Below the pieces are notes generated by a model, which was not told the DNA's origin, made no database searches, and worked only from the letters and a program-made list of their open reading frames with translations. A stretch of DNA of 64,000 nt, from positions 299,282-363,281 of the forward strand of contig JAHFKK010000001.1 in NCBI GenBank assembly GCA_023245335.1. Direction: 5' to 3'. Made by a program: the position numbers and the translations under genes. Numbering within the stretch: position 1 is the stretch's first letter; the number at the start of each line of letters is the position of its first letter. This stretch comes from Candidatus Gottesmanbacteria bacterium (lineage in GTDB: Bacteria; Patescibacteriota; Microgenomatia; UBA10105; UBA927). Shown in pieces: positions 33,169-55,786 of this stretch.

Positions 33169-33240
33169 GCGCGAAGTGAAACCCCTCGGAGCTTTAGCGA
33201 AGTGGGGTTAATCATAAATAAATTAACTATTAACCAAAAG

Positions 33241-33266
33241 GTCCCGCGAAAGCGGGACTTTTGGTA
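33241..33266 (+). terminator. Rho-independent terminator after groEL (GTCCCGC-GAAA-GCGGGAC + TTTTGG)
   Basis: Perfect 7-bp stem with a GAAA tetraloop and a T-tract. Confidence 0.8.
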
Positions 33267-40756: not shown

Positions 40757-41784
40757 ACGAGAAACATGGTCAACGCGACAGCAACTGCGATAAACGCGAA
40801 TACTTTGAGAGAACTCGTGACTGTGAGCGAGACCAGCCCCAGTATAGCGGACACCCCCCAGTAAAACAAGGCGATTCTGCGTTTTCCCCACCCCAAATCC
40901 ATGAGCCGGTGATGAAGGTGTCCGCGGTCCGCCCAGACCGGTGACTTCTTCGTCCCGAGACGCCGCACCAGGGTTGCCACGGCGTCCAACATGGGGATGC
41001 CCAGGACAAGGAGCGCGGTCCCGAGTTTCGCAAACGAAAGTATGCCTAAGAGCGCCAAAAAGTATCCCGCAAGCGTTTTGCCGCCGTATCCGGGCATAAT
41101 GCGCTGCGGATAGAAGTTCCACGGCAAAAAGCCAAGAAACGATCCGGTCACGATGAATGCGAGCGTCGTTACCCAGGCCTGTGACGGGTCGGATAGGCTG
41201 TAGCGGAGCGACAGTAATCCCAAAACAAATGCGGAGATTGCGACATAGCCCGGCATTTGTCCGTCAACGCCTGCTGACCATCCGATGATGTTCATGGTCC
41301 AGACAATCCAAAGAAGTGCGAAGATCTGTGGTAACCCGACGACCACGCGAAGAGCACCGATAGTCAGTGTTTGATCCCATGTCGTGAGTTGTAGTACTCC
41401 TCCCGTCAACGGGTTGGTGATAAACGGAATGACGTTACCGCTGAAAACCACAATGCACGCGACCAGTACGTTCACGGTGAGGCGTACATACGGATTGATG
41501 TCTTTTTTGTCGTCAAGTAACCCTAGGATGGTGAGTATGAGCGCGCCGACTATGATGCCTACCTGATGGGGATTTAATTGTATGGAGAAAACGATCGCTA
41601 TGACGATGCCAAAACATATGGCGAGTCCTCCGGCGCGCGGTACTATGCCCCGATGCGTGTGTGCAGGATGATATCTGTGGGTGGGGTCATCAACGAGACC
41701 AAACCGTTTTGCCAAGACAATGACGAACGGCGTTGCGAGACATGTCGCGATAAGAGCAATAGCCCACGGTGCGATAAATTGCAT
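40702..41784 (-). CDS. GT4-family polyprenyl-phosphate N-acetylhexosamine-1-phosphate transferase (WecA/MraY-like)
   Basis: Ten or more TM helices and the HLHHRL motif. Confidence 0.8.
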   Translation of the reverse strand: MQFIAPWAIALIATCLATPFVIVLAKRFGLVDDPTHRYHPAHTHRGIVPRAGGLAICFGIVIAIVFSIQLNPHQVGIIVGALILTILGLLDDKKDINPYVRLTVNVLVACIVVFSGNVIPFITNPLTGGVLQLTTWDQTLTIGALRVVVGLPQIFALLWIVWTMNIIGWSAGVDGQMPGYVAISAFVLGLLSLRYSLSDPSQAWVTTLAFIVTGSFLGFLPWNFYPQRIMPGYGGKTLAGYFLALLGILSFAKLGTALLVLGIPMLDAVATLVRRLGTKKSPVWADRGHLHHRLMDLGWGKRRIALFYWGVSAILGLVSLTVTSSLKVFAFIAVAVALTMFLVWVSFFTQFSKLRGPDNG

Positions 41785-41786
41785 AA

Positions 41787-42179
41787 TTATCCTACTAAGG
41801 TCACTATACGGATAACAAAGAGAACGCTTAAGCTTGAGACCAGAAGAGACGTCATAAAGAGTACCCGTGCGAATATGGGATGATCTGCAGCATACCGGAC
41901 GACTACCGCGATATTCGTAAGATATATGATGATTGCCACACCGATAGGAACCAGGAGGAATAGCGGTGACGATAATCGATCTTCACCCCACGGCTGACTA
42001 TACCAAATCGGTACGACCGGGGGGAGTTTGCGCCAGTTCCAAAGGATTGCGACGATGCCGATGATTCCTTGTAAAATGGCACCTGCTGATGCAGCACGGT
42101 ATTCCCACGTCCGGCGAAGCGGCGCGATGCCCTGAAGGAAACGTTCCGGTGTCGGTGTGGTAGGGAAGATAAATTTCAT
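41787..42179 (-). CDS. Small integral membrane protein (130 aa)
   Basis: Three to four hydrophobic helices. Operon position between the GT-C and GT4 genes. Confidence 0.45.
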   Translation of the reverse strand: MKFIFPTTPTPERFLQGIAPLRRTWEYRAASAGAILQGIIGIVAILWNWRKLPPVVPIWYSQPWGEDRLSSPLFLLVPIGVAIIIYLTNIAVVVRYAADHPIFARVLFMTSLLVSSLSVLFVIRIVTLVG

Positions 42180-43525
42180 AGTTTGTTTTTACGAACGGAC
42201 GTTGTCCCTGCTGACGTGCGGTAAATGACCTCAAACGATGCGTCTCCGTGCACGAGAAACGTACGCGACGGAGGAAAGACGGAAAAATCTGCTTTCATGC
42301 GTCCCGGTGTCATAAGCGCCTCACCTATATACCACGGAAACGGTGCGTTTTGCGGGTTATAGAGAAATACCTGTGAACGATTATGGGCATAATAGAGCGT
42401 CTCAAGATATATAAGCGCGTTATCCGCCATGATGACGTCAGTGTTTCTCGAAAGAGCGTTGACTTCCAGCATTGTGTTGCGAAGCGGAACTTTGGGGTGT
42501 TGCGGGGGGAACCACCAGTTGATCCACAGGACAAAAACCATGAGCACCGCTGCCGTGATCTTTTGAAACATCCGGTTTTTGATCGCATCGAGCGCCGCGA
42601 CGATCACGAGGACCTCCGCGATAGTCGATGGAATGAGATACCGGTTCACAAAAAGCGGTTTCACAAAAGATATACCAATGATAACGGCAAGCGGCAGTGC
42701 CCCGAAGAGGATAAAGAGTGACGTGCGGTTGCGGTTTTTGCGGTCCATGAGGGCAAAAAGAGCGAAGCCCGCAAGGATAAGCGAAAGATACGCCGTATAG
42801 CCCCATCCGTACCACGGCGTCCCCTCATAGCCGGTAAACATATTTCCGAGTGCAGAGAGCACAAGTTGCAGATTGACCGGGAAATACCATGAATTCCGAA
42901 ATCGGGATGACTCCGCACCAATTTTTATGAGCCAGGGGATCATCAGTACGCCGACAGCAGTAAAGGCTCGAAGTGCCGCATCATGACGGAATAAATTTTT
43001 GATACGTCGGATGTCCGGATGGGTGAAGATGAACCAGTGGACAAAAAGAGCGCCGAGGAATAGTAGAAGATACACGTGGGTGTAGAATCCCAAAACTGCG
43101 GCTACGATAAACCATTTCCATCGTTTGTTCGTATATGCATAAAGCGTCGCAGTAGCGAAGAACATATACCATGCATATGTGCGCACCTCGAACGCATAGT
43201 AGAGGATCATGGGGTTCAGGAAAAAAAAGACCGGCATATAGAACGAAAGCCAGTGCTTTTTGTACATTTGAGCCGCCCATCGGATGATGATGACTGTCGT
43301 CAGCAAAAATCCCAGAAGCGATAAGCTGCGCGCGGCAATATCCGACTCACCGAATATCCGTATCCAGTAGTGGAGGAGTGTGTAGTAAACCGGAGGTTCG
43401 AATCCCAATCTTTCGACAATAAACCGGAGCGATTGTTCAGAGGCGAGGACCGAAAACGCTTCATCCCGCCAAAAACTTTGGGTCATGTAGAGAAGCGGTG
43501 TATGGGTGAGTAATAAGTTCCACAT
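42176..43525 (-). CDS. GT-C-fold membrane glycosyltransferase (ArnT/PMT-like)
   Basis: FWRDEAFS (DE motif) near the N-terminus; polytopic. Confidence 0.65.
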   Translation of the reverse strand: MWNLLLTHTPLLYMTQSFWRDEAFSVLASEQSLRFIVERLGFEPPVYYTLLHYWIRIFGESDIAARSLSLLGFLLTTVIIIRWAAQMYKKHWLSFYMPVFFFLNPMILYYAFEVRTYAWYMFFATATLYAYTNKRWKWFIVAAVLGFYTHVYLLLFLGALFVHWFIFTHPDIRRIKNLFRHDAALRAFTAVGVLMIPWLIKIGAESSRFRNSWYFPVNLQLVLSALGNMFTGYEGTPWYGWGYTAYLSLILAGFALFALMDRKNRNRTSLFILFGALPLAVIIGISFVKPLFVNRYLIPSTIAEVLVIVAALDAIKNRMFQKITAAVLMVFVLWINWWFPPQHPKVPLRNTMLEVNALSRNTDVIMADNALIYLETLYYAHNRSQVFLYNPQNAPFPWYIGEALMTPGRMKADFSVFPPSRTFLVHGDASFEVIYRTSAGTTSVRKNKL

Positions 43526-43574
43526 AGGAAAGAAACAAGGGCATTTGCTACGCTTCTGCGCAGTCTATTAACAA

Positions 43575-45056
43575 TTATATCTTTTCCGTTACTCTGTATT
43601 CCAGCCGTTTACCCAAAAGAAGCCGAGTGTGGGCATCCAATCCCGGGAGAGCGGAGAGGAAAAATGAAATGATCGGAAGCGTGAGCCACTGAAGATAAAG
43701 AAGAGGCAATTTCCATTTGGCGTATGATGCCGGCGGGGGAGGTTTGATGCGCCAATCGATGATGAAGACTATAGCAAGGAAGATGGTAGAAAGCGTAAGT
43801 ATACCGGAGGAGATTTGTGCAAGGTTGTGTCCCAGAACAGTCCGTGCAAATACCGGGTTGACGAGTGGTGGTACGGTGCTTCCGAGCGTCAGGATAAACC
43901 AGTTCGTCGGCCATAATATATGGTGTTCCAGGAGGAGGAGTAAGCGCCGAAATCGTTCTCTCGCTTTGATTTCGGTATGAATAAAAACGTTTTGGATGAC
44001 ATACGGAATGTCGGATACGCCCCAGGCCCAGCGTTTGGCCTGTTCATACTGATTGATGAACGTATGAAAAAATCCCGTGCTTTCCGCCGCATCGACCGAT
44101 ATCGGTAAAAATATAGGAAGCGCTGATACTCGTCCGCCTTTGGCAAAATACACTTTGAAGAACATATGATAATCCTCGGGAATGACGTCGACAGACCACC
44201 CGCCTACTTCTTTGGCAGTTTTAAGAGACAGGGAATAGGTAGAGAAGTTTATAAGTCTGCCTTTTTGTGAGAGCGTTGCGAGATTCCAAATCGTGTTGAG
44301 GGTGTTGAGAAAACGATAGGGTAGTTGGATGCGCCAGATATTGTTGTAAAACATGATAGCACCCTGGTAAAAGTGATACGCACGGTCCTCATCCTTGAGA
44401 AATGTGCTGGCAAGTGCGGAGAAATATTTAGGATGCGGCAATGCGTCGGCGTCGCAGGATGTAACGGTTGTGTACTCGAGGGGAATATGTTTTGTTTTCA
44501 GGAACGCAATGATATTTTTTGAAGCCCACGCCATGTTTGAGGATTTACCGGCTATTTCACCGTTATGGAGGGTGTGTCTCGTGATGATGAAGTGAGCGAA
44601 AGCCGATGAAAATTCTTTTTTCAAAATTGCGCACGTTGCTTTGGCATCCGGATCCTTGGCCTCGGTCGCAAGAACGACTACCATTTTTGTTTTGGGGAAG
44701 TCCTGATTCGCGAGGTTAGTAAGGGTGCGACGGAGGATGTGGATGGGCTCTTTGAATTCCGGAATGATGACGACGTGCCAAAGATTTTCGAAGTGCGGAT
44801 TCGCCATTGCGAGCTTAAGCCAATCTTCCCGAACATGTGCCGAAAGCTTCGCAAATGACCGGAATGCGGAGTAAACAAGCGTCAATGATTTATAAAACCA
44901 ATAGACATCGAATGTGATGATGAGATACGCGACGGTCGCAGGGTGCCAGAACGAAAGCCAGAGCGGCATGGTGATAAGAAGCCATGAGACCGTCGGGATG
45001 GCAATTTCGAGTAACCGTTGGATTTTGTTCGGATAACGTAGGAATATCCAGCGCAT
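43575..45056 (-). CDS. Membrane-embedded GT2-family glycosyltransferase (processive-synthase-like)
   Basis: TSCDADA (DxD) and QAKRWAWG (QxxRW) with flanking TM helices. Confidence 0.75.
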   Translation of the reverse strand: MRWIFLRYPNKIQRLLEIAIPTVSWLLITMPLWLSFWHPATVAYLIITFDVYWFYKSLTLVYSAFRSFAKLSAHVREDWLKLAMANPHFENLWHVVIIPEFKEPIHILRRTLTNLANQDFPKTKMVVVLATEAKDPDAKATCAILKKEFSSAFAHFIITRHTLHNGEIAGKSSNMAWASKNIIAFLKTKHIPLEYTTVTSCDADALPHPKYFSALASTFLKDEDRAYHFYQGAIMFYNNIWRIQLPYRFLNTLNTIWNLATLSQKGRLINFSTYSLSLKTAKEVGGWSVDVIPEDYHMFFKVYFAKGGRVSALPIFLPISVDAAESTGFFHTFINQYEQAKRWAWGVSDIPYVIQNVFIHTEIKARERFRRLLLLLEHHILWPTNWFILTLGSTVPPLVNPVFARTVLGHNLAQISSGILTLSTIFLAIVFIIDWRIKPPPPASYAKWKLPLLYLQWLTLPIISFFLSALPGLDAHTRLLLGKRLEYRVTEKI

Positions 45057-45100
45057 AGTATCAAGCCAAACAATTATACTATATAGGAGTGTTCTTGCGC

Positions 45101-45880
45101 TTAAATGCCAAAGAGAGCTTTCGCGTTGGTGGTAGTCGCTTCCATAATTTCCTGTACCGGCTTTTGTTGTAGCTCAGCGAGCTTTTGGGCGATGAGCGGG
45201 ATGTATTTGGGCTCGTTACGTTCTCCGCGGTGGGGTACCGGCGTGAGATACGGGGCGTCGGTCTCCAGTACCAGCATGGAAAGCGGGATATGCGGGACGA
45301 TCATCGCAAGTTGTTTGGAATAGGTGACATTGCCGTCTATGCCGACGTAGAATCCGAGTTCCTGCGAGCTTCTAAGGTCCTGCAGGCCGCCGGAAAAGCA
45401 ATGAAGAACCCCCCGTGGTATGTTGGGTACCGTATGAAGGATAGTGAATAGATCCTCAAATGCGTCGCGACAATGGAGGATGACCGGGAGATTGTGGGTG
45501 AGCGCAAGTTTGAGCTGTTCCTCGAGTAACCGGTGTTGGACATCTTTTCTTCCTGCTGCCACCTCGCCTTTGTATTCATGGTAATCCAGGCCGCATTCGC
45601 CGATTGCGACAATCAATTTCTTGTTTTGTTCGTCCGTGAGGAGTGATTCAAGGTATGAAATATCCGGATTATGCGGTGCTTCATACGGGTGGTAGCCGAC
45701 ACCGGCAAAAATGACGCCCGGATGCACGGAGGCAAGGTGAAGAGCCGTCCTGCAGGAATTATGATCTACTCCCGGGACGACAAATTGTTTCACCCCGGCT
45801 TTTTTCGCATTGCCGATGACCATCTCCCGATCCGTATCAAAATCCGAGAAATTCAGTTGTGTGTGCGTGTCGATGAACAT
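45101..45880 (-). CDS. tatD: TatD-family metal-dependent hydrolase/DNase
   Basis: MFIDTHTQL start, then ..GECGLDYH.. motifs. Confidence 0.85.
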   Translation of the reverse strand: MFIDTHTQLNFSDFDTDREMVIGNAKKAGVKQFVVPGVDHNSCRTALHLASVHPGVIFAGVGYHPYEAPHNPDISYLESLLTDEQNKKLIVAIGECGLDYHEYKGEVAAGRKDVQHRLLEEQLKLALTHNLPVILHCRDAFEDLFTILHTVPNIPRGVLHCFSGGLQDLRSSQELGFYVGIDGNVTYSKQLAMIVPHIPLSMLVLETDAPYLTPVPHRGERNEPKYIPLIAQKLAELQQKPVQEIMEATTTNAKALFGI

Positions 45881-45882
45881 GA

Positions 45883-47340
45883 TTACGTAAGCCTTGGAAA
45901 CAAGGGTGGTTGAGATTTGATTGTCGGACCTTTAAATTGATCAAGGATTTTTTTCGCAGTTTCGGGCAGAAATGGTTTTAAAACTTGAGCAATCGATATA
46001 ATCTGATTAACAGCATTTGTTATAACAACATAGTTTGAAAGTTTTTTACTATCATCTGATAATTCTTTTTGCCACGGCCTTTCATTATTTATATATCGAT
46101 CTAGTCCAGTAACAGCACCCCAAATAAGTGAAAGCGCTTCATTAAAACGGAATGATTCAACAATCGGTTGTACATCGTTCCAAAGCGAATTGATTTCATC
46201 GGATTGGTCATTCTTAATTAATACATTATTATTCTCTGCGAGCTTAGCTACGCGGGCAATCAGGTTGCCCAATCCGTTCGCTAAGTCTGAATTATAAAGT
46301 TCCTTGAATCTCCGTTCGGAGAAATCTCCGTCGGCGGAAGAAGGAATTTCGCGCAGGAAATAATAGCGCAAGGCGTCTGCGCCGTATTTTTTGATAAGTT
46401 CAAACGGGTCGATGACGTTGCCTAAAGTTTTGGACATCTTCTGGTCGTTCACCGTGAAGTACCCGTGTACGAATATGCTTTTGGGAGTTGCGAGTCCTGC
46501 AGACAAAAGGAATGCCGGCCAATAGACCGCGTGGAAGCGGGAGATGCCTTTGCCGATGACGTGGACGTCAGCGGGCCACCATTTCTCATACTGCTTTTCG
46601 TCCCAGCCGAATCCGATGCCGGACTGATAGATGTTGAGCGCATCAAACCATACATACATGCGCTGGCTGTCATCGCCAGGTACAGGGACGCCCCAGTTTT
46701 TGGCGCGCGCGTTACTCCGGGAAATACTTATATCCTGGAGCGGCTGTTTGAGAAATGATAAAACCTCGTTTCTGCGGGTATCCGGAATGATCTTGAGTTT
46801 GTCTTTTGAGATTAGGTCAATTATCTGCTTTTGGTATTTGGATAGCCGGAAGAAATAATTTTCCTCCGACACCTTTTCGAGTTTTTTGCCGGGGTGTTCG
46901 AAACATTCGCCGTTTTCATCCAGTTCGTCGGCTGTATAAAACGTTTCGCACCCCACACAATAGAGGCCTTCATACGATTTTTTGTAGATGTCTCCGGCCT
47001 TGTCGCAGAGCTGCCATAATTTTTGGCTCGCGACGAAGTGATGTTCCTGGTCGCTTCCTTTTTGCCACACGTCAAACCGGCAACCGAGGGCGGTCGTGAG
47101 TTCCAGAAACTTTTTCGTATTGTCGTCGATGAATTTGTGTACGGGTACACCCGCCTTCTCTGCGGCCTGGACGTTTTTCAGTGCGTTTTCATCGCCGCCG
47201 GACAGGAGTAAGGTGTCTTCGCCCAAAAGCGCATGATACCGCGCGATGACATCTCCCTGTACGAATTCCAGGGCATGCCCGATATGTGGTGCGGCATTCA
47301 CGTACGGAATGGCGCACGTTATGTAGAACTTTTTGTTCAT
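45883..47340 (-). CDS. metG: Methionyl-tRNA synthetase (short form)
   Basis: PHIGHA (HIGH) and KMSKT motifs with a CxxC zinc knuckle; 485 aa. Confidence 0.9.
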   Translation of the reverse strand: MNKKFYITCAIPYVNAAPHIGHALEFVQGDVIARYHALLGEDTLLLSGGDENALKNVQAAEKAGVPVHKFIDDNTKKFLELTTALGCRFDVWQKGSDQEHHFVASQKLWQLCDKAGDIYKKSYEGLYCVGCETFYTADELDENGECFEHPGKKLEKVSEENYFFRLSKYQKQIIDLISKDKLKIIPDTRRNEVLSFLKQPLQDISISRSNARAKNWGVPVPGDDSQRMYVWFDALNIYQSGIGFGWDEKQYEKWWPADVHVIGKGISRFHAVYWPAFLLSAGLATPKSIFVHGYFTVNDQKMSKTLGNVIDPFELIKKYGADALRYYFLREIPSSADGDFSERRFKELYNSDLANGLGNLIARVAKLAENNNVLIKNDQSDEINSLWNDVQPIVESFRFNEALSLIWGAVTGLDRYINNERPWQKELSDDSKKLSNYVVITNAVNQIISIAQVLKPFLPETAKKILDQFKGPTIKSQPPLFPRLT

Positions 47341-47618
47341 AGTCGTATTTTACTACGCAACCAGTTCCCTAAGCCACGTTTAGCTTTTGGCGCCTCAAGA
47401 CTTTTGAGTTCTGACAGAGAAACTGTTCTTATAGGAACCGCTTGGGAATATATTTTTTTCCGTTTGGAAATTCCGTCGAGCGAGGTGCGTATCGAATGAT
47501 TTTGGATAAGAACGCTTGCACGATCTCCCTCTTTACTGATGAGCGTGACATCATACGCTTCGTCTTCGATTTTTAGACGATAGGCGTGTCCGATTATATG
47601 TTCTTTTTTTCCAAACAT
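47337..47618 (-). CDS. Small hypothetical protein (93 aa), translationally coupled to metG
   Basis: ATGA overlap with metG. GGGGTGA-like SD. Confidence 0.45.
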   Translation of the reverse strand: MFGKKEHIIGHAYRLKIEDEAYDVTLISKEGDRASVLIQNHSIRTSLDGISKRKKIYSQAVPIRTVSLSELKSLEAPKAKRGLGNWLRSKIRL

Positions 47619-47626
47619 ACTTCACC

Positions 47627-47658
47627 CCAATAAAAAACCTCCCGGTTCGGGAGGTTGT
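47627..47658 (-). terminator. Strong intrinsic terminator or attenuator hairpin on the minus strand (AACCUCCCG-AAC-CGGGAGGUU + UUUUUUAUU)
   Basis: 9-bp GC-rich stem and a U-tract, upstream of the small ORF and metG. Coordinates approximate. Confidence 0.6.
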
Positions 47659-47698
47659 CTGTGATTCCTGGTTAGGAAACTACGAAACACCCTCCCGT

Positions 47699-47746
47699 CA
47701 CGGGGGTTGCATCATAGACACCAACTGTCGCAAAAGATGGTTCATA
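47699..47746 (-). other. Candidate 15-codon leader-peptide ORF (MNHLLRQLVSMMQPP*) with tandem Met codons and AGGAGGA SD, upstream of the terminator
   Basis: Hand translation. See the finding on the metG attenuator. Coordinates +/-1. Confidence 0.45.
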
Positions 47747-47830
47747 GTATCAGGTATCCTCCTACGCCAAGGCTTCGGCGGATTGATGGTTGGTAAATTC
47801 ACTCGTCAGACTCGTTCGTTAACCAACCAT

Positions 47831-47862
47831 CAAAAAACCTCCTTGCGGAGGTTCATTTTTTG
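47831..47862. terminator. Bidirectional intrinsic terminator (AAAAAACCUCC-UUGC-GGAGGUU-CAUUUUUU)
   Basis: Hairpin flanked by A-run and T-run. It would terminate the minus-strand gene 47970-48287. Confidence 0.55.
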
Positions 47863-47969
47863 GCACATACAAACCTCCGTTAGTCGGCTGTCATGGCCAT
47901 CATCATGGAGATTGTAATCGTCATTAATGTGAAGAATATCACCAATTTATCGGGCGTGCAAGCGAGAGG

Positions 47970-48287
47970 TCATTTCCGTTTCCAGAGGATTTCTATAGCG
48001 ACAATACAGGCAATAAGAAGCGCCGGATAGACCGGACTCCGGAGACCAAAAAATCTCAAGACCAGAAACAGTGCCAGTCCGAAGCCTAGGAGGATGGATT
48101 GCTGTATTCGCCGGAGTACATACTGGATAAGGAGTCCCGTGGACGCGGTAAAGGCGATGATAAAGAGTGCGATCCGCCATAGAGCATCCGGTGGAAATAT
48201 GTTGACGAACGCGGCGAGTAATATGTATCCCGAGACGCCGGATATGAGGAGGTAGGGATTCCGCTGGGACCGTGGTAGTCGCTCCAT
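47970..48287 (-). CDS. Small membrane protein (105 aa, three TM helices)
   Basis: ORF-track call. TACAAT lies 6 nt before the ATG on the minus strand. Confidence 0.45.
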   Translation of the reverse strand: MERLPRSQRNPYLLISGVSGYILLAAFVNIFPPDALWRIALFIIAFTASTGLLIQYVLRRIQQSILLGFGLALFLVLRFFGLRSPVYPALLIACIVAIEILWKRK

Positions 48288-48294
48288 AAGTTTA

Positions 48295-48324
48295 TTGTAG
48301 GGCGGTAGACTCCCATGCTACAAT
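48295..48324 (+). promoter_or_regulatory. Promoter TTGTAG-N18-TACAAT, 8 nt before the ATG at 48333
   Basis: Sequence reading only. Implies a leaderless rmuC mRNA. Confidence 0.4.
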
Positions 48325-48332
48325 GGGCGGAC

Positions 48333-49367
48333 ATGCGACCCGACTTTCTCATCCTCATTCTTGTCGTCATCGCCGGGTTCGGAGTGCTTGCGTATCTCGT
48401 GAAAAAGGAACTCGGGAAACTCGCCGAGAAAAAAGAAGACACGACGCTTACCGAATGGCTGAAGACCATGCAGGTCTCGATCGAAAACACCAATAAGGTT
48501 TTAAATGAAGCGATGCGGGGACAGACAAGCGACGTCGCGAAACTTCTTCAATCCAACACAAAACAATTAAACGACCGTCTCGATACGGCGGCGCGAGTTA
48601 TCGGAGACCTCAAACAAAATTTAGGCGAAATGTCCGAAGTGGGGAAGGGAATACGGAGTTTGCAGGAATTCCTCCAGTCACCGAAGCTCCGCGGCAACAT
48701 CGGTGAACAGGTTATGCAGGACATGATCGGTCAGACGTTCCCAAAGAATTCGTTTCATCTCCAGTATCAATTCCGAAGCGGCGTGAAAGTGGATGCGGTC
48801 CTCAAAACTGATGCGGGTTTACTCTGTGTCGACTCTAAGTTTCCGATGGAGAATTTCACCAAGATGCACAAAGGGGAGACGGAAGTATTGAGAAATGCGG
48901 CAAAACGGGATTTCATGGCGGACGTCAAAAAGCATGTGAACGACATAAATAAAAAATACATTTTGCCGGAAGAGGGTACGATGGATTTTGCCCTTATGTA
49001 CATACCGTCCGAAGCCGTATATTACGAGATTGCCAACATGGAGGAACTCATGGAGTACGCACGGAAGCAGCGCGTGTATCCGGTATCTCCGAATACGCTC
49101 TATGCGCATCTCCAAGTACTCCTGCTCTCATTTCAGGGGAAGGAACTGGAACAAAAGTCACGGCAGGTTTTTCAACTTCTGCGGGCGATCCAGAAGGACT
49201 ACACGAAAGTGGAAGAAAATTTGGGTATCCTTTCAAAGCATGTGGGTAATGCGTATAACATGATGAGTAATGTTTCCGGATCGTTCTCCCTTCTCGGGCA
49301 GAAACTCTCACGGACCCAAAACCTTGAAGCAGAAGAAGAGCCTCCGTCTTTACCTCTCGCTGAATGA
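48333..49367 (+). CDS. rmuC: DNA recombination protein RmuC
   Basis: N-terminal TM, coiled-coil, then KLRGNIGE..LCVDSKFP RmuC core. Start moved to 48333 (MRPDF) because the -10 overlaps the 48315 ATG. Confidence 0.75.
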   Translation: MRPDFLILILVVIAGFGVLAYLVKKELGKLAEKKEDTTLTEWLKTMQVSIENTNKVLNEAMRGQTSDVAKLLQSNTKQLNDRLDTAARVIGDLKQNLGEMSEVGKGIRSLQEFLQSPKLRGNIGEQVMQDMIGQTFPKNSFHLQYQFRSGVKVDAVLKTDAGLLCVDSKFPMENFTKMHKGETEVLRNAAKRDFMADVKKHVNDINKKYILPEEGTMDFALMYIPSEAVYYEIANMEELMEYARKQRVYPVSPNTLYAHLQVLLLSFQGKELEQKSRQVFQLLRAIQKDYTKVEENLGILSKHVGNAYNMMSNVSGSFSLLGQKLSRTQNLEAEEEPPSLPLAE

Positions 49368-49955
49368 TTACTTCCCGATACCGCGTACGAACATGAGGAT
49401 GACGGGATAGTAGACGTAGATAAAATATCCGTTAACGGCGATAAGCCCCGGAAAAATGAAAAATTGTTCCAACGGCCCGCCTGTCCGTATCCGTAGAAAT
49501 TTAAACGGGGGGAAACCGAAGCGGATCGGGATGGGGAAAAACCACGGGATGCCTTCTTTGGTGATGAAGTCCATGACAAGATGTGATGCGTACCCGATCA
49601 TAAGAGCCCACCAGACGACCGTCATGTCGACCAGAAGCACGTGGTGCATCGCGTCCAGAAGAAGATGGACCAGGTATCCTGCTATCGCCATACCCACGAA
49701 CGAATGCGAAATCATGCGGTGATGACCTATAAGAGGGTGCAGTACTTTGCCGAAGAAAGATCCTGCAGGTATCTTTTGCCAGAAGTCGCTCGTCGCATCA
49801 TCAATGTCCGGCATGAGACCGCCGATCATATTGGCGGCAAATGCCGTAACTGCGGTGCCTAAGCTCATGTGCGGCACGTGTTGGGTCGCGATGAAGTACG
49901 TGAGTGTCGTAAACGCAGCGAGATCGTGGGTCCGTCCGGTCATAGAAAAAATCAT
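49368..49955 (-). CDS. Membrane-bound metal-dependent hydrolase, YdjM/DUF457-like
   Basis: His-rich TM protein (HHRMISHSF, HLLLDAMHH, HLVMDF). Confidence 0.6.
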   Translation of the reverse strand: MIFSMTGRTHDLAAFTTLTYFIATQHVPHMSLGTAVTAFAANMIGGLMPDIDDATSDFWQKIPAGSFFGKVLHPLIGHHRMISHSFVGMAIAGYLVHLLLDAMHHVLLVDMTVVWWALMIGYASHLVMDFITKEGIPWFFPIPIRFGFPPFKFLRIRTGGPLEQFFIFPGLIAVNGYFIYVYYPVILMFVRGIGK

Positions 49956-50003
49956 AGCATATCGGCCTTAACTCTGGGCTGCGGTGTATAATATGGAGGA
50001 GCT

Positions 50004-51176
50004 ATGAAGTTTATCTTATTTCATGGAGCCTTTGGTAGTCCCGGCAGTAATTGGTTGCCGGAACTCAAGGATAAGCTTGAATTATCCGGACAGGAAGCAT
50101 TAGCTCCCGCGTTTCCGGTGGATACATGGGACCGTGTGACGGAATTGGGGAAAAACGTCCCGTCTAAACGGCAAACTTTAGAGAATTGGTTTACTGAATT
50201 CGATGCGGTTTATAAGACGCTTCATAAAGGAGAAAAACTTTGTTTTGTCGGTCACTCGTTGGGCCCGCTCTTTATTCTCCACGTAGTTGAGAAATATAAC
50301 ATACAGCTGGATAGCGCTATTTTTGTCTGTCCGTTTTTCACGACGCTTCATAAGTCATGGCAAATAGACCATGTGAATAAAAGCTTTTACAAAACGGACT
50401 TTGATTTAAAAAAATTACGGAAATTAATCCCTGTTTCTTACGTACTCTATTCCGGTGATGATCCGTATGTCGATTCAAAATATTCTTTAGAGTTCGGAGA
50501 GAATTTGGGTAGTTCTGTTATATCCATGAAGCGTGCGGGTCATATGAACGACGAGGTACACCTCAATGACTTTCCTCTGGTTGTCGATCTTTGTTATACC
50601 CGCCTTGACCTTTCTTTGTATCAAAAATTTTTGGAACATTATAAGAAGCAGTCTGCTCAGGGATATATAACGGAAACAAAGAACAGCGGCATACTGAAAA
50701 TTAAACCTGAAGAAGTCATTGATGAAGGGATATTTCATTTCCGTCATTTAAGTTCGGATGGGTTCTGCACACTATTCACGCGAATCCAAAAATTTTGGGA
50801 TCCGGAATCTACCTATATGCAGCACGGCCGGGATGCTGCGAAACGGGGAGTATCGTTTACCCGCGTCATCGTTGCCGACGATGGAAGCGATTTGCACTCG
50901 CCGGTTCTCAAGAGGCAAGTGGAGTTGGATATCGCTGCCGGCATCCATATATATAGTGTTCTGTGGGATGACATAAAAGACGTCGTGACGGAGCCTGATT
51001 TCGGTCTCTGGGATAACAGCTATGTTTGTGTGGTTCGGGTAAATTCCGATACGGGAAAAGTGGTTGAGGCGGAACTAAATAGCAGGTTGAGTGACATGGG
51101 CAGATACCAGGATTGGCGGAAATACATATTGTCGAAAGCCAAAAAAATTCGTTCGACAAAAGACCTCATACGGTGA
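50004..51176 (+). CDS. Two-domain protein: N-terminal RBBP9/YdeN-like serine hydrolase plus a roughly 190-aa C-terminal domain of unknown function
   Basis: N-terminal MKFILFHGAFGSPGSNW..FVGHSLG. The C-terminal half is unrecognised. Lower-GC gene. Confidence 0.55.
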   Translation: MKFILFHGAFGSPGSNWLPELKDKLELSGQEALAPAFPVDTWDRVTELGKNVPSKRQTLENWFTEFDAVYKTLHKGEKLCFVGHSLGPLFILHVVEKYNIQLDSAIFVCPFFTTLHKSWQIDHVNKSFYKTDFDLKKLRKLIPVSYVLYSGDDPYVDSKYSLEFGENLGSSVISMKRAGHMNDEVHLNDFPLVVDLCYTRLDLSLYQKFLEHYKKQSAQGYITETKNSGILKIKPEEVIDEGIFHFRHLSSDGFCTLFTRIQKFWDPESTYMQHGRDAAKRGVSFTRVIVADDGSDLHSPVLKRQVELDIAAGIHIYSVLWDDIKDVVTEPDFGLWDNSYVCVVRVNSDTGKVVEAELNSRLSDMGRYQDWRKYILSKAKKIRSTKDLIR

Positions 51177-51209
51177 TCATTTTTACTTTCTTGCTATAAT
51201 GGCTCCACG

Positions 51210-54155
51210 ATGCAGAAGATCCCCGTAATTGACCGTAAATTAAATGATGAACAAAAGGCCGCAGTAGAGTACGGCGACGGACCGCTCCTTATTATCGCCG
51301 GCGCCGGTACCGGCAAGACGACGGTCATCACCGAGCGCATCAAGCACCTCATATCGACGAGCCGCGCGAATCCGTCGGAGATTCTTGCTTTGACCTTTAC
51401 CGAAAAAGCCGCACGCGAGATGGAAGAGCGGGTGGACGTCATCATGCCCTACGGTGTGACGGAAATGTGGATTTCCACGTTTCATAAATTCTGCGACCGC
51501 TTGCTTCGTCAGGAAGCGATCCATATCGGGTTGAATCCCGCATACCGTCTGATGACCGATACCGATGCTACGATGCTTTTCCGGCAGAATCTGTTTCAAT
51601 TTGACCTCAATTATTTCCGGCCTCTGGGCAATCCGACCAAGTTTATAAGCGGCATGCTGCAGCATTTTTCGAGATTGCAGGATGAGGATGTGAGTCCGCA
51701 AGAATATCGTGCGTACGTCAAAAAACTAGAGAGCGGGAAAAAAGAGAAATCCGAAGAAGACGAGTTGGAACTAGAGAAATATGTGGAGCTCGCCCGTGTG
51801 TACGGCGAGTATCAGGCGCTCAAGGAAAAAGAGGGCCGCATGGATTTCGGCGACCTTATCATCCAGACGCTTAAATTATTCCGGACGCGAAAAAATCTGT
51901 TGTCTGTCTACCGGAAACAGTTCAAATACATCCTCGTCGACGAATTCCAGGATACCAATATCGCCCAAAATGAACTCATCGCGCTTCTTTCCGGGGAGAA
52001 ACAAAATATCACGGCGGTATGTGATGACGACCAGAGTATATATAAATTCCGGGGAGCGGCGGTATCAAATGTTCTTGCATTCCGTAAGCACTTCACGAAG
52101 GCAAAACTCATTGTCCTGACCAAAAACTACCGGTCGACGCAGTCGATCCTCGACGCATCGTATCAACTTATCCAGCACAACAATCCAGATAGACTGGAAG
52201 TCAAGGAAAAGATAAGTAAAAAACTTGTGGCCGAGCGGGGGACAAACGGCCGCTGGCCGTCACTTTTGTATCATGACCGGGTCGAAAACGAAGCGGAGGG
52301 TGCCGTCAAAGAAATACAAAAACTCCATGAGGAATCCGGCAGGAAGTATGCATGGAAGGATGTCGCGATCTTAGTCCGGGCCAACAGTCACGCGGATCCT
52401 TTTATCCGTGCGTGTATGAGACTCGGCGTGCCGTTCCAGTTCCTGGGGCCGGGACAGCTTTTCCGCCAGCCGGAGGTCATGGACCTCATCGCGTACTTGC
52501 AGGTCATCCAGCATTTTGACAACAACGTAGCATTTTTTCGGGTGTTGTCCATGAAATATTTTGATATGCCCCCGCGGGATTTTGCGGCTATAGCGAATCT
52601 CGCCCGGAAGCAAAACATGTCCGTATTTGAGGCGAGCGAAGTCATGGCGGGGAAAAGGATTTTGGACGGCATAACCCTGCCGTTTATTTCCGAGGAAACC
52701 AAGGAGAAACTCGGCACCATTATTTCTATGATCCATAGGCACCTGGGGTTGGTGACCAAAGAGACGGCGGGGCAGATCCTTTTCTATTTTTTACAGGATT
52801 CCGGCTTTATCAAAAATATCCTGGAATATTCGACCCGGTCGGATGAGCAAAAAGCAAATAACGTGTCGAAATTTTTCAGCAAACTCAAAACTTATGAGAC
52901 GGATCATGCAGATGCCAGTGTGACCGCGGTTCTCGACTGGATAGAACTTTCGATGGAACTTGGAGAATCACCGCTTGCCGGGGATACCGACTGGGTGCAA
53001 AACGACGCTGTCAATATCCTGACGATTCATAGTGCGAAGGGTCTGGAGTTCCCCGTAGTTTTTTTGGTCAATCTCGTATCTCAGCGGTTTCCGACGACCG
53101 AGCGGCACGAACAGATCCCTATTCCGGAAGCGCTTATCAAGGAAGAATTGCCCGAAGGAGATTATCATCTGGAGGAAGAGCGCAGGCTTTGTTACGTCGG
53201 CATGACGCGTGCCCGGGATCTCTTGTATCTGACCGGAGCAAATTACTACGGCGAAGGCAAACGTGAGAAAAAATTATCGCCGTTTGTCGGAGAAGTGATA
53301 GGGGACGCAGCACGTGTGCCTATCGTGCCGCCCAAGGCGCTGCAGATGTCACTTCTGGACTGGAAAAAAGAGGATGCAACGGACACGACGAAAGTGACGA
53401 AAGCGCCGATTACGTATCTGTCATATTCTCAAATAGAAACGTTCCGGTTGTGCCCTTTGCACTATAAACTGAGGTACCTTTTGAATATTCCGACTCCGCC
53501 GTCCGCATCGCTTTCGTTTGGAACCAGCATTCATGCGGTGCTCAGAGATTTTTATGCCATGCACGAAAACGGAGAGAAGGTGACCAAGTCACTCCTCACA
53601 GATTTATTGGTGACCCACTGGAAACGCGAGGGGTATGAAAATAAACGATATGAGGAAGAAATGAAAAAGCGAGGAGAACGGTATTTGTCCGAATATTTTG
53701 ATAAAGAATTTCACCCTGATACGAAAACCGTTGCACTGGAGCAGTCGTTTACCGTACCAATAGCAACTGATACCGGATCACTTAAAATAGGCGGGAAGAT
53801 TGACCGCGTCGATATCTTGCCGGGAGGCAACATAGAGATCATAGACTATAAGACGGGCCGTATGCCCAGTAAGCGCGAGGTAGACACAAACCTGCAACTT
53901 TCGATGTACGCCATTGCCGCGACCAGCATTCCCGGTACGCCGTTTGGTAAGAACCCTGAAGACATTGTTCTCTCTTTGTATTTTTTTGATTCACAAACCC
54001 GCATATCGACGACCCGCACCGCGGATCAACTGCAAAAGGAGAAGGGAACGATCATTGATATCGCGCACGCGATCGAAACTTCGGACTTCATGTGTTCCGG
54101 CAATCAATTATGTGCTGCATGCGAATATGCGATGTTTTGTAACGTCTCCGGTTAG
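51210..54155 (+). CDS. UvrD/PcrA-family SF1 helicase fused to a C-terminal PD-(D/E)XK nuclease with a Cys4 Fe-S cluster motif (AddA/Cas4-like architecture)
   Basis: N-terminal GAGTGKT Walker A and UvrD motifs. C-terminal nuclease motifs IDYKTG, QL..Y and Cys pattern C..(CX5CX2CX5C). Confidence 0.8.
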   Translation: MQKIPVIDRKLNDEQKAAVEYGDGPLLIIAGAGTGKTTVITERIKHLISTSRANPSEILALTFTEKAAREMEERVDVIMPYGVTEMWISTFHKFCDRLLRQEAIHIGLNPAYRLMTDTDATMLFRQNLFQFDLNYFRPLGNPTKFISGMLQHFSRLQDEDVSPQEYRAYVKKLESGKKEKSEEDELELEKYVELARVYGEYQALKEKEGRMDFGDLIIQTLKLFRTRKNLLSVYRKQFKYILVDEFQDTNIAQNELIALLSGEKQNITAVCDDDQSIYKFRGAAVSNVLAFRKHFTKAKLIVLTKNYRSTQSILDASYQLIQHNNPDRLEVKEKISKKLVAERGTNGRWPSLLYHDRVENEAEGAVKEIQKLHEESGRKYAWKDVAILVRANSHADPFIRACMRLGVPFQFLGPGQLFRQPEVMDLIAYLQVIQHFDNNVAFFRVLSMKYFDMPPRDFAAIANLARKQNMSVFEASEVMAGKRILDGITLPFISEETKEKLGTIISMIHRHLGLVTKETAGQILFYFLQDSGFIKNILEYSTRSDEQKANNVSKFFSKLKTYETDHADASVTAVLDWIELSMELGESPLAGDTDWVQNDAVNILTIHSAKGLEFPVVFLVNLVSQRFPTTERHEQIPIPEALIKEELPEGDYHLEEERRLCYVGMTRARDLLYLTGANYYGEGKREKKLSPFVGEVIGDAARVPIVPPKALQMSLLDWKKEDATDTTKVTKAPITYLSYSQIETFRLCPLHYKLRYLLNIPTPPSASLSFGTSIHAVLRDFYAMHENGEKVTKSLLTDLLVTHWKREGYENKRYEEEMKKRGERYLSEYFDKEFHPDTKTVALEQSFTVPIATDTGSLKIGGKIDRVDILPGGNIEIIDYKTGRMPSKREVDTNLQLSMYAIAATSIPGTPFGKNPEDIVLSLYFFDSQTRISTTRTADQLQKEKGTIIDIAHAIETSDFMCSGNQLCAACEYAMFCNVSG

Positions 54156-54238
54156 CAGCAGTTCGTGTTGTGAGATAGGTCACTAAGTAAAAGCATGAGA
54201 CTTGACAACCTGAAAAACCTTCTGCATAGTAGATAGTA

Positions 54239-55786
54239 ATGGTGCAAAGAAATAATTCACCGATCAAGATTTTCTCTCTCGTTATAGCAGTCGCATTTGC
54301 CGTCATAGCACTTGCCGTAGGATACGTTGCCGTCCAGAAATCCACAGAAGGCCGATCAAAGGCAGGACTCATCCAGAAAGATTACATGCGCTGGGATTTC
54401 ACCAAGGATGCAGAAGGATGGACAGGAGCAAATATCGTCAGTAAGATCATGGCTTGGAGCGGAGGCGGTGTCTTGACCGGCACCATAATGCCGGGAAGTA
54501 CATTTAATAGTCCTGTTGTAAATGTTCCGATGCCGGTAGGCAATAAGTCTATCGTCGTGCGTATGAGCGTGTCTTCCGGTCAGCCGCTACCTATCTGGAT
54601 CGGAGGCACAGATTGTACAGTCGGGCCACTAAATGATGTCAAGTGCGGCGTCGTCCTAAACAAAACAGGGACGGTAACCGTCCAGAACGTAGGCGGAAGT
54701 GCTGTAAGTGGTAGTGCTCCGATCACAACATCGGCCGGTGTAGCACAAAAGCTTGTCACTTTGGATCCTATTGAGCGGCAACCCGCTCCGCCCTCTACAG
54801 TATGCATACCGCAACCCACGTGTCCGTCAGGCCAAATGTGTCCCATGATTGAATCATTTAGAGCGGGCGGTTACTGTCCGCCTGATGTCACACCAAAACC
54901 TTCACCGGTGTGTGTGCCACGGCTTCCGTGTATGGATGCCACAAATGGACCGCGATGTTTGCCCGACATAGCTCCCGGTGCTGCATTTTGTCCGCAACCC
55001 TGCGTCTCCAGGCCTGTTTGTAAGGATCCGAAGGGATGCGCCCAAAAAATGATGGTACCGGTTGGCGGGTGGTGTCCGGACACGACTCCGTATCCGACCA
55101 CAGCGCCAGTTAAACGATCAGTTACGTTTACCGTAACGTATGCATTGTCCAAAGGGCCTAAAGCACTCGATTCTGCTCCGATTTCCGAAACAGGAGAAAT
55201 ACCGAATAGCTTTATCGTACCGGTAGATGGCAGCATGACGGAATACACAGTAAAAATTCCCTTAATAAATTCAGCAGTCGTGCGTAAAGTCGGCATTCAG
55301 GTACAGCAGGGTGCGCTTAAAGGTGATCGGGTACTTATCGATTCCGTGCGCTTAGTAGGAGATGTAACGCCGGTCGTTACATGTGTCCAGCCCCCGACAT
55401 GCAGGCAGACTCTGATGAAAGGCACGGATGGCAGCTTCCGTTGTCCGATGACGGCAGATCTCAAGCCCGGGGTGACGTATTGCCCGTATCCTACGCCGCA
55501 GTGCATCCAGCCACCGACGACGTGCAACGTGAATGTAGTCGCGGGGAAAGACGGCACCTTTTATTGTCCATCCTTGGGATTAATGGATAAAACCGGCATG
55601 AAATACTGTGAGTTTCCCAAGCCGACTCCAACTCCGCCGGCTCCTGCGAACTGCTACTATCAAGCCGTGAAGTGTGTCAAAGCGCCATGTAATGCAGTCT
55701 TGGTGTGCACGAACCCAAAAGTGAATCCGCCGTTGAATCAAAATCGAGACCCCGGTGATAAAGCGATGAATAAGAAAAATAGGTAA
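54239..55786 (+). CDS. Cys/Pro-rich secreted or membrane-anchored hypothetical protein (about 36 Cys)
   Basis: N-terminal TM/signal; repeated C.P..C patterns. Confidence 0.5.
   Translation: MVQRNNSPIKIFSLVIAVAFAVIALAVGYVAVQKSTEGRSKAGLIQKDYMRWDFTKDAEGWTGANIVSKIMAWSGGGVLTGTIMPGSTFNSPVVNVPMPVGNKSIVVRMSVSSGQPLPIWIGGTDCTVGPLNDVKCGVVLNKTGTVTVQNVGGSAVSGSAPITTSAGVAQKLVTLDPIERQPAPPSTVCIPQPTCPSGQMCPMIESFRAGGYCPPDVTPKPSPVCVPRLPCMDATNGPRCLPDIAPGAAFCPQPCVSRPVCKDPKGCAQKMMVPVGGWCPDTTPYPTTAPVKRSVTFTVTYALSKGPKALDSAPISETGEIPNSFIVPVDGSMTEYTVKIPLINSAVVRKVGIQVQQGALKGDRVLIDSVRLVGDVTPVVTCVQPPTCRQTLMKGTDGSFRCPMTADLKPGVTYCPYPTPQCIQPPTTCNVNVVAGKDGTFYCPSLGLMDKTGMKYCEFPKPTPTPPAPANCYYQAVKCVKAPCNAVLVCTNPKVNPPLNQNRDPGDKAMNKKNR

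Follow-up and report, generated by a model that had tools for sequence, protein, structure and literature searches.

Two candidate attenuators in series with methionine codons as sensor upstream of metG in a Candidatus Gottesmanbacteria bacterium

Introduction

The closest described counterpart of the element treated here is the pheM leader of the Escherichia coli pheST operon (Rfam Phe_leader, RF01859), where a leader peptide with cognate codons and a set of alternative hairpins stand before the operon of the matching aminoacyl-tRNA synthetase. Our element lies on the minus strand of a 64,000-nucleotide (nt) stretch of contig JAHFKK010000001.1 (hereafter the window) from a Candidatus Gottesmanbacteria bacterium, and it constitutes the 5′ leader (47941-47632) of an operon formed by a 93-residue open reading frame (ORF; orf93), metG, which encodes a methionine--tRNA ligase (MetRS), and tatD, which comes after metG. 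It shares the logic of pheM/pheST but carries Met instead of Phe codons, has no sequence relation to it, comprises two units in tandem, of which the upstream one (unit A) apparently has a leaderless peptide, and belongs to an ultra-small host of the Candidate Phyla Radiation (CPR). The same interplay of 1:2, 2:3 and 3:4 pairings is found in E. coli trpL, with regulatory codons 3-5 before the stop and the stop placed just before segment 2. Unlike trpL, the leaders described here do not serve a biosynthetic operon; they precede a synthetase and a salvage enzyme in a probable methionine non-producer, and they would sense the same amino acid that initiates translation, a situation that classical attenuators avoid.

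Outside Proteobacteria, comparative genomics has predicted that leader peptides control synthetase genes by attenuation, namely trpS and leuS of Streptomyces (PMC1262725) and hisS of Firmicutes (PMC2965389). Both the amino acids and the phyla differ from ours, no sequence is shared with the present leader, and neither paper mentions metG or a Met leader. In addition, leaderless leader peptides have been predicted in Deinococcus deserti (PMC4007540), and leaderless poly-Cys upstream ORFs (uORFs) have been studied in mycobacteria (bioRxiv 10.1101/834739). There the AUG of the leader peptide likewise lies at the 5′ end of the transcript, in other phyla and for other amino acids (Cys is the one shown).

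Met T-box leaders and S-adenosylmethionine (SAM; S-box) riboswitches of Firmicutes play the same role, raising metS/metG or Met genes via a terminator and an antiterminator upon a drop in Met-tRNA charging or SAM; unlike the element described here, they sense tRNA or SAM directly by a structured aptamer and involve no translated ORF. No T-box (Rfam RF00230) was detected at E<=1 in 40000-55000, at E<=10 in 47560-48000 or at the gathering score in 10 related loci, in agreement with a first-pass annotation of this DNA, made from its letters only, which had reported no T-box consensus. The same scans gave no match to SAM or Met riboswitches (SAM-I to SAM-VI and similar). As for the Rfam leaders, the best match was Phe_leader at 47629-47716 (25.3 bits versus a gathering score of 55), and Trp_leader, His_leader, Leu_leader and Thr_leader were not listed; the Phe_leader match, which falls on the downstream unit (unit B), is a likeness of architecture only.

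No matching family exists in Rfam 15, and the literature searched holds neither a Met leader peptide nor an attenuator from Patescibacteria or CPR bacteria, the leaderless list of D. deserti (Supplementary Table S9, PMC4007540), which may include metG, not being covered. The unit A family apparently represents classical ribosome-mediated attenuation with Met specificity, in Patescibacteria, of a kind that has not been described. To our knowledge, leader-peptide attenuation is known for Trp, His, Phe, Leu, Thr, Ile/Val and Cys, not for Met, and gene regulation in the CPR is almost unexplored.

Architecture of the Leader and Proposed Mechanism

The leader probably contains two ribosome-mediated transcription attenuators in series, with Met codons as the sensor, before the orf93-metG operon. 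Unit A, like every feature of the leader given below, lies on the minus strand. Its predicted promoter consists of a -35-like TTGCAC (47956..47961), a spacer of 17 nt and an extended -10 box, TGaTATTCT (47933..47941), located 8 nt before the AUG of uORF-A. The -35 element was not picked up by a strict consensus promoter scan; TTGCAC or TTGCAG stands at the same place in two related loci, L011 and L108. uORF-A (47880..47924; MTITISMMMAMTAD-TAA, MTITISMMMAM..) has 14 codons and would encode the leader peptide of unit A, with 4 internal Met codons of 13, at 47906-47898 and 47894-47892. Segment A1 (AAUCUCC, 47907..47913) is able to pair with segment A2 (CGGAGGUU, in DNA CGGAGGTT; 47872..47879), which begins at the base after the TAA stop, is complementary to the 5′ arm of the terminator and is also similar to a Shine-Dalgarno (SD) sequence. 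The minimum free energy structure of unit A in the window uses a second anti-antiterminator pairing, GGCCAUGACAGCC with GGUUUGUAUGUGCC, instead of A1:A2. An A-rich spacer separates A2 from terminator A (A3:A4; 47832..47854; -11.7 kcal/mol), which reads GAACCUCC-GCAA-GGAGGUUC followed by U6 (in DNA GAACCTCC-GCAA-GGAGGTT-T6). The first-pass annotation had described a second, bidirectional terminator at this site. The hairpin and its T-run do exist (47854-47832), but they form the terminator of a second attenuator, whose uORF (47924-47880) fell outside the annotated coordinates and was overlooked.

Unit B is the unit described in that annotation, and its components are where they had been placed: an SD sequence, AGGAGGA (47757..47763), a 15-codon uORF-B (MNHLLRQLVSMMQPP-TGA, 47698..47745) with ATG ATG at 47715-47710, a CGGGAGG segment next to the stop and a 9-bp terminator. 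The distance from the SD to the AUG at 47745, which had been judged somewhat long, measures 11 nt. uORF-B has 2 internal Met codons of 14, and its last sense codons form segment B1 (CAACCCCCG, 47701..47709). Segment B2 (CGGGAGGGUG, in DNA CGGGAGGGTG, containing CGGGAGG; 47688..47697) lies directly after the TGA stop, and an inner hairpin, UUUCCU-AACC-AGGAAU (47664..47679), is enclosed by the B2:B3 antiterminator. Terminator B (B3:B4; 47632..47656; 9 bp, -14.0 kcal/mol) is AACCUCCCG-AAC-CGGGAGGUU plus U6; its DNA form is AACCTCCCGAACCGGGAGG+T6, i.e., AACCTCCCG-AAC-CGGGAGGTT-T6. As the predicted promoter lies in front of unit A, unit B would be the second of a tandem, reached only by read-through, and a strong SD with no -10 box is what is expected for a unit in this position.

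Single features of this leader do not exceed chance: ATGATG occurs 57 times in the window versus about 43 expected, and AGGAGGA 10 times versus about 6. The 162-nt leader of unit B folds only slightly better than its shuffles (z -1.5). For the 352-nt leader the z-score is -4.6, and none of 100 shuffles folds as well. With both strands of the 64 kb taken together, a strict scan found only about 11 terminator-like hairpins, and this leader holds two of them in tandem. The combination of leader features is beyond chance, because these tandem terminators are rare, the whole leader folds far below its shuffles and the architecture recurs in relatives.

In the mechanism that we propose, the transcription start, the translation of the uORFs, the stalling and the regulatory outcome are all predicted from sequence. 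Transcription would start at or just before the AUG of uORF-A, and the peptide would be read from a leaderless mRNA. When Met-tRNA(Met) is ample, the ribosome would reach the stop and cover segment 2, so that terminator 3:4 forms and the polymerase stops at the U-run; if the ribosome departs after the stop, segment 2 would pair back with the leader-ORF sequence, and terminator 3:4 would still form. When charged Met-tRNA is scarce, the ribosome would stall on AUG-AUG-AUG-GCC-AUG and hide the upstream partner of segment 2, which would then capture the newly made segment 3, leaving no terminator and letting transcription go on. Unit B would repeat this decision with an SD-dependent uORF and two Met codons. 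The first-pass annotation had placed metG under the control of the attenuator; metG does belong to the operon, and the first regulated gene would be orf93. Since metG would be made only after two read-throughs, a steeper response is expected.

A Family of Putative Methionine Leaders in Patescibacteria

Comparative evidence, of the kind called for in the first-pass annotation, supports the Trp/pheM-style logic with Met codons suggested there, the regulatory outcome being a prediction. A Met-rich uORF, a stop-adjacent segment 2 and a terminator recur at 33 other metG or SAM hydrolase loci. These further instances are of the unit A type and came from three routes, namely metG synteny, an RNA pattern free of Met codons and homologs of the SAM hydroxide adenosyltransferase SAM_HAT. 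Their uORFs have 13-42 codons, of which about 21% are Met codons. The 80 nearest metG loci in species-representative genomes, at 61-81% amino-acid identity, all belong to Patescibacteria, mostly Candidatus Gottesmanbacteria and other Microgenomates.

In the first route, 760 kb of metG loci plus the window were crudely scanned for a short ORF with ATGATG and a terminator within 90 nt. Six of the nine matches belong to the family, all six upstream of the metG operon and on the same strand; the match in L015 looks like a false positive. The uORFs of L011 (MIQTVSMMMANTSG), L012 (MKFMPNTFSAMMTIFTIG), L034 (MTTKTSGMMQLAV), L067 (MKFEFVSMMSMQTV) and L075 (MNLQTSMMMAMEADP) all end with a stop that adjoins a segment complementary to the 5′ arm of the next terminator. 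Terminators of the form CCTCC-loop-GGAGG-Tn were found nowhere else in the 760 kb of related sequence. The element is sporadic, being present in about 7 of 81 metG loci, and most close relatives (e.g., L028 and L021) have neither uORF nor terminator.

The second route searched a metagenome collection for CGGAGG-N8-38-CCTCCGCAAGGAGGTTTT, a pattern that contains no Met codons, and retrieved 27 loci, 22 of them distinct. In 18 of these an ORF of 13-21 codons ends 0-2 nt before CGGAGG, with the consensus peptide M-N-T-K/Q-T-S-M-M-M-A-M-x-A-V-stop, and wherever the uORF has 14 sense codons (13 members), codons 8-9 are always ATG ATG. Met accounts for 53 of 255 internal codons in the 18 members (binomial P ~2e-32 versus 2.5%), while ATG occupies just 1 of 510 out-of-frame triplets. 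The other four loci, a truncated contig, an unrelated high-GC locus and two ordinary gene-end terminators (L103 and L104), serve as negative controls. The downstream genes are metG, SAM_HAT (PF01887/PF20257) or small genes followed by metG, the latter being a 99-108 residue ORF plus a glyoxalase-like gene, or DUF2000.

For the third route, eight CPR homologs of SAM_HAT on long contigs were chosen, and the element lies directly upstream of the SAM_HAT operon in all eight loci. Their uORFs are MSQTKVNMMSMQSV, MNKFVTMMQMTSV, MNKSISIMMQMASA, MNQKVIMMMQMRSV, MTIQSSVMMDMMLAS, MSKLIQTSMMMVMRAG and MKQTLKTSTMAMVAV, plus a 42-codon ORF that ends ...MGMMEAS, and Met amounts to 29 of 135 internal codons. 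A covariance model built from the first two routes only detects seven of the eight SAM_HAT loci at 52-76 bits, and six of the eight operons have the arrangement SAM_HAT-X-metG. Wherever the downstream operon can be identified, it contains metG and/or SAM_HAT. Within this family unit A scores 104.7 bits (47941-47826, covariance model R1) and is far better conserved than unit B.

These data bear on the simplest alternative, in which both hairpins are ordinary terminators of the upstream 105-residue gene together with spacer structure, and the Met ORFs are due to chance. That gene shares the strand of the leader, 9 nt separate its end from the leader promoter, its transcripts would also be stopped by terminator A, and L103 and L104 are plain gene-end terminators of similar sequence. 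Such a reading can hardly be correct, and it is already contradicted by the family data: 33 loci with differing upstream genes have retained the uORF with its Met codons and the segment 2 next to the stop, the association with metG or SAM_HAT is complete wherever the downstream gene is identifiable, and L028 and L021 have the same upstream gene with no attenuator and no terminator at that place.

Some further observations concern the members and the candidates. L110-L116 and L067 share a recurrent operon with SAM_HAT, a small gene (cupin, glyoxalase-like, peptidase S66 or the 99-residue ORF) and metG. A 117-residue gene of the Trp_repressor family (PF01371) is found directly upstream of the Met leader in L112 (156-509), L114 (1029-1382) and L116 (1026-1379). 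Three marginal model matches, in L043, L054 and L034 (reverse strand), were rejected as members after inspection. The one in L054, on a Wildermuthbacteria contig (6226-6370, plus strand; a weak match of 19 bits), comprises a leaderless-looking uORF, MKKISQTMLLLLVLV..., followed by AUCUCCCAA/UUGGGAGAU, a CCUCCC/GGGAGG hairpin and a U-rich tail, upstream of about 700 nt without ORFs; it might be a Leu-type leader or encode a small secreted peptide.

Alternative Structures and Covariation

Masking of the leader had been suggested in the first-pass annotation as a check on its pairings, and we folded 34 instances with the region occupied by the ribosome made unavailable. The alternative pairings form as proposed there, with 1:2, 2:3 and 3:4 each appearing in constrained folds, and each state is thermodynamically feasible. 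With a ribosome at the Met codons, and before segment 4 is made, segment 2 pairs with the 5′ arm of the terminator in 34 of 34 instances, with energies of -13.6 to -24.3 kcal/mol for the antiterminators versus -9.1 to -14.0 kcal/mol for the terminators. Masking at the stop allows the terminator to form in 33 of 34. When no ribosome is present, segment 2 folds back onto the leader ORF, where it pairs with the ACCUCC that precedes the Met run, with the final sense codons (as in unit B) or with the Met-codon region. Specifically, B2 pairs with B1 in the absence of a ribosome and with B3 under Met-stall masking.

The geometry of the element is also maintained. The terminator stems measure 5-9 bp and are followed by U5-U7, only the L013 copy being degenerate, and the stop ends 0-2 nt before segment 2 across the family, despite whole-codon insertions and deletions. 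Segment 2 varies together with the terminator sequence. Thus, CGGAGGUU is accompanied by the terminator AACCUCC/GGAGGUU, CGGGAGG by CCUCCCG/CGGGAGG (window unit B and L108), GGCGGGG by CCGCC/GGCGG (L067), GCGGGG by CCCGC/GCGGG (L110, L112, L114 and L116) and GAGGGUCUG by CAGACCCUC/GAGGGU (L111). The matching cores are GGAGG/CCUCC, GGGAGG/CCUCCC, GGCGG/CCGCC, GCGGG/CCCGC and GAGGG/CCCUC, and the mean duplex of segment 2 with the terminator is -11.4 kcal/mol for own pairs versus -8.3 kcal/mol across types.

The P1 helix of the family (ACCUCC/GGAGGU) has 79% of its cells paired in the alignment. For the terminated-state helices of the 34-row alignment the figure is 84.2%, versus 80.1 +/- 0.7 in shuffles (reached by 0/500) and 39-56% in slid helices, and 31 cells hold compensatory changes versus 11 +/- 2.7 (0/500). 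The idea that a conserved DTG after segment 2 extends P1 was discarded, as the geometry does not allow it. With regard to the peptide, entropy is flat by codon position (0.90/0.97/0.91), and nothing suggests that its sequence matters beyond the Met codons.

An RNA switch that binds a ligand or a protein (e.g., Met, SAM or MetRS), the ORF being incidental, would account for the helices being conserved by sequence more than by covariation, for members with a single Met codon that keep the RNA and for the extra conserved hairpins, H1 and H2, that come after unit A. We regard it as very improbable. No Rfam family is at or near its threshold, there is no conserved multi-helix core beyond the four mutually complementary segments, and codon 8 (A62, U63) is invariant yet outside any helix. 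Moreover, the AUG keeps a fixed distance to the -10 box, an in-frame stop lies 0-2 nt before segment 2 in spite of codon indels, and Met makes up 21% of the codons in frame only.

Promoters, Predicted Leaderless Translation and Second Start Codons

The family uORFs usually have no SD. In 30 of 34 members the uORF AUG is preceded by a TAnnnT box at 5-10 nt (mode 7), in 23 of them with a TG extension. Such proximity of the -10 box to the AUG predicts a transcription start at or adjoining the AUG, which implies that the leader peptide would be read from a leaderless or near-leaderless mRNA.

A second set of start codons follows segments 2 and 4. ATG, GTG or TTG is located exactly 7 nt after the GGAGG of segment 2 in 19 of 23 GGAGG-type members and at 6 nt in three more; window unit B and the GCGGG-type units have no such +7 start. 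The mini-ORFs opened there span 1-25 codons in all three frames and often cross the terminator, with neither length nor frame conserved. In unit A a GTG 7 nt past the GGAGG of A2 opens such a mini-ORF (VPKNEPPQGGFLMVG*, 47819..47866), which reads across terminator A and has equivalents in L081-L117. Similarly, the GGAGG of segment 4 has a start codon 7-8 nt behind it in 18 of 26 units. This codon is the start of metG itself in L012 and the ATG of SAM_HAT in L111 (after GAGGG+T7); elsewhere it opens a mini-ORF of 1-4 codons that ends at or overlaps the main start, with ATGA in L087 and L092. The arrangement in unit B is TTG GGG TGA agt ATG(orf93). Start sites of this segment 4 kind are seen in the window at 47830-47819 and 47631-47623 (minus strand), and also in L012, L087, L092, L107 and L111. 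This layout suggests that terminator formation may also hide an SD, resulting in dual control.

Two described systems resemble these SD-plus-start modules. In ermC, ribosome stalling on a leader ORF makes a downstream SD accessible, and in pyrBI the leader ORF runs through the terminator; ermC and pyrBI respond to antibiotics and to UTP-dependent polymerase pausing, respectively, not to tRNA charging, and the second ORF here is conserved neither in length nor in frame. By analogy with ermC, the main effect could be translational: segments 2 and 4 would be SD sequences (GGAGG) hidden by the anti-SD-like segments 1 and 3, Met stalling would re-pair the RNA and expose the segment 4 SD, and the downstream gene would be translated directly or via a mini-ORF of 1-4 codons. 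Apart from the regular spacing of the starts after segments 2 and 4, it is the metG start of L012, the SAM_HAT start of L111, the mini-ORF stops overlapping the gene start in L087 and L092 and the layout of unit B before orf93 that fit such a device. We nevertheless consider a mainly translational effect decidedly unlikely, as every instance has a canonical hairpin with U5-7 (only L013 is degenerate) and SD masking needs no U-run. In addition, the +7 starts are missing from the GCGGG and GGGAGG types, unit B included, and orf93 is preceded by an SD-like GGGGUGA that lies outside the terminator hairpin. The translational and transcriptional modes are not exclusive, and dual control is possible.

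Unit B and the Region between the Units

The sequence between terminator A and the SD of unit B contains two hairpins. H1 (GAUGGUUGGU...ACCAACCAUC, 47785..47831) is the 10-bp inverted repeat already noticed in the first-pass annotation, and H2 (CGCCGA-AGCC-UUGGCG, 47765..47780) is a small hairpin. L011, L075, L113 and L115 also have a hairpin of the H1 type (GAUGG...CCAUC, with UUAAYGA and GUGA inside) past the terminator, the stems differing by compensatory changes. A hairpin of the H2 type (AUCCGCC...GGCGGAU) occupies the corresponding position in L113 and L115, and in L075 it lies within H1; the equivalents are at about 3614-3665 in L011, 3905-3960 in L075, 1440-1500 in L113 and 1420-1500 in L115. 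H1/H2 thus recur in five loci, upstream of orf93, metG or SAM_HAT. A role of H1 as a mimic of the tRNA-Met anticodon arm, similar to the thrS operator, was dropped, since only L011 has a CAU-containing loop.

The module formed by unit A, H1 and H2 matches the leader before SAM_HAT in another Gottesmanbacterium (L113), and unit B has its counterpart in L108 (70% identity), a locus with a single attenuator. The 5′ half of the L108 leader resembles unit A, with a promoter and then MNTTISMMEMM..., so its uORF carries MMEMM; its 3′ half is a homolog of unit B (...CCCCCCGACGGGAGG..UUUCCU/AGGAAA inner hairpin..AACCTCCCAAACGGGAGG-T6), and the ORF runs through segment 2. The UUUCCU/AGGAAA stem corresponds to the inner hairpin of unit B. 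Another locus, L109, comes from the same strain as the window. Unit B belongs to a diverged type, of which L108 holds the only other example, and this type should be able to serve as an operon's sole attenuator, because the L108 homolog stands alone. The tandem itself may have arisen by fusion of two leaders.

Weighing the Tandem Attenuator Reading

Several observations weigh against two working Met attenuators in series, and a first group concerns unit B. It has only two Met codons, a long distance between SD and AUG and a single independent homolog, and the family covariance model does not find it at E<=1. It is conceivable, albeit unlikely, that unit A alone works and that unit B is a decaying or neutral duplicate or a leader remnant, with a hairpin that acts as a constitutive partial terminator or is idle. 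Unit B indeed has neither the -10 box nor the +7 start codon seen in the family, its ATGATG taken alone is common in the window, L011, L108, L113 and L115 manage with one unit, and degenerate members such as L013 exist elsewhere. Decay is less easily reconciled with a unit B that has kept its four segments, the position of the stop next to segment 2, a strong SD and an undamaged terminator of 9 bp plus U6. Furthermore, its 2:3 structure is the strongest of all instances folded (-24.3 kcal/mol), and the homologous L108 unit is the only attenuator of that operon.

A second group concerns covariation. The 34-row alignment was fitted to the model and therefore leans towards it. In the first pattern-selected alignment (A1, 22 sequences) column-wise covariation was no better than in shuffles, because the helices are nearly invariant, and shuffles were exceeded only after the SAM_HAT-derived loci had been added. 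Column by column, the antiterminator helix is not significant either (77% paired, a value reached by 44/500 shuffles), partly because its register differs between terminator types.

A third group comes from individual members. L013, L098, L105 and L106 keep the RNA architecture with only one Met codon, and in L013 (3867-3981) the U-run is broken and metG has its own SD; this single-Met sub-lineage may consist of decaying copies or have an altered sensitivity or a different use. In L081, L098, L102, L105 and L106, metG has its own -10-like box (TATACT) 6 nt before the ATG and about 26-32 nt after the attenuator terminator. Such a proximal promoter may produce a leaderless metG mRNA that bypasses the attenuator, to which read-through would add little.

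Finally, Met starvation also limits fMet-tRNA and thereby the initiation of the leader peptide, which should favor termination, an inherent conflict for any Met-sensing leader peptide. A broader interpretation, which we offer tentatively and do not expect to hold in full, takes the unit A type as the master switch of methionine economy (SAM hydrolase plus metG) in CPR bacteria of the Microgenomates type, working as a dual transcription/translation device made of two anti-SD/SD-plus-start modules. As the AUG would be 5′-terminal and a second start lies 7 nt past segment 2, the charging of initiator and of elongator tRNA-Met could both feed into the element. If true, this would solve the conflict that presumably keeps Met out of known leader-peptide attenuators.

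The Putative Methionine Regulon

SAM_HAT (PF01887) enzymes cleave SAM to adenosine and L-methionine, and in some sources they are named "S-adenosylmethionine hydrolase". In related genomes, the unit A-type device would control metG together with this methionine-releasing hydrolase, so that a fall in Met-tRNA charging would bring more synthetase and more free Met from SAM. The window itself has no SAM_HAT gene. A regulon of this composition is coherent for organisms thought unable to synthesize methionine.

If the element works as proposed, it would provide a simple, sequence-recognizable regulatory device in uncultivated bacteria with reduced genomes, and it would reveal which genes these organisms treat as the response to methionine shortage, namely MetRS and a Met-releasing SAM hydrolase. 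The presence of the hydrolase in the putative regulon points to SAM as a methionine reserve or a scavenged source. The element would be a compact sensor (about 95 nt) of Met-tRNA charging that is testable in cell-free systems, and the family can be used in the annotation of CPR genomes, where it would explain puzzling tandem terminators upstream of metG.

Flanking Genes and Minor Observations

The gene upstream of the leader encodes a membrane-protein-like product of 105 residues and ends at 47970 (minus strand); the promoter-like TTGCAC starts 9 nt past its stop. Downstream of the attenuators, the first gene is orf93 (93 residues, 47618-47337, minus strand), whose stop overlaps the start of metG (ATGA). 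The product of metG (45883-47340, minus strand) is a short-form methionine--tRNA ligase of 485 residues (TIGR00398, 410 bits versus a cut-off of 336).

The protein encoded by orf93 matches no Pfam or NCBIfam family and is very rare: besides the one in L011, 2 homologs were detected in a set of 5.8 billion clustered proteins. Its AlphaFold model is weak (predicted local distance difference test, pLDDT, of 64) and depicts, with low confidence, a small beta-sheet protein; a Foldseek comparison of the model with the Protein Data Bank (PDB) gave nothing below E=0.04 and no fold match.

Two further sites in the window are worth recording. On the plus strand, 53145-53243 has a sub-threshold Rfam match to the Clostridioides difficile small RNA n00280 (35.5 bits versus a gathering score of 65, E 0.013), which is probably due to chance. 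A strong terminator is found at 33239-33260 (plus strand), directly after an ORF whose end resembles the GroEL C-terminus, and it illustrates how scarce clear intrinsic terminators are in this window.

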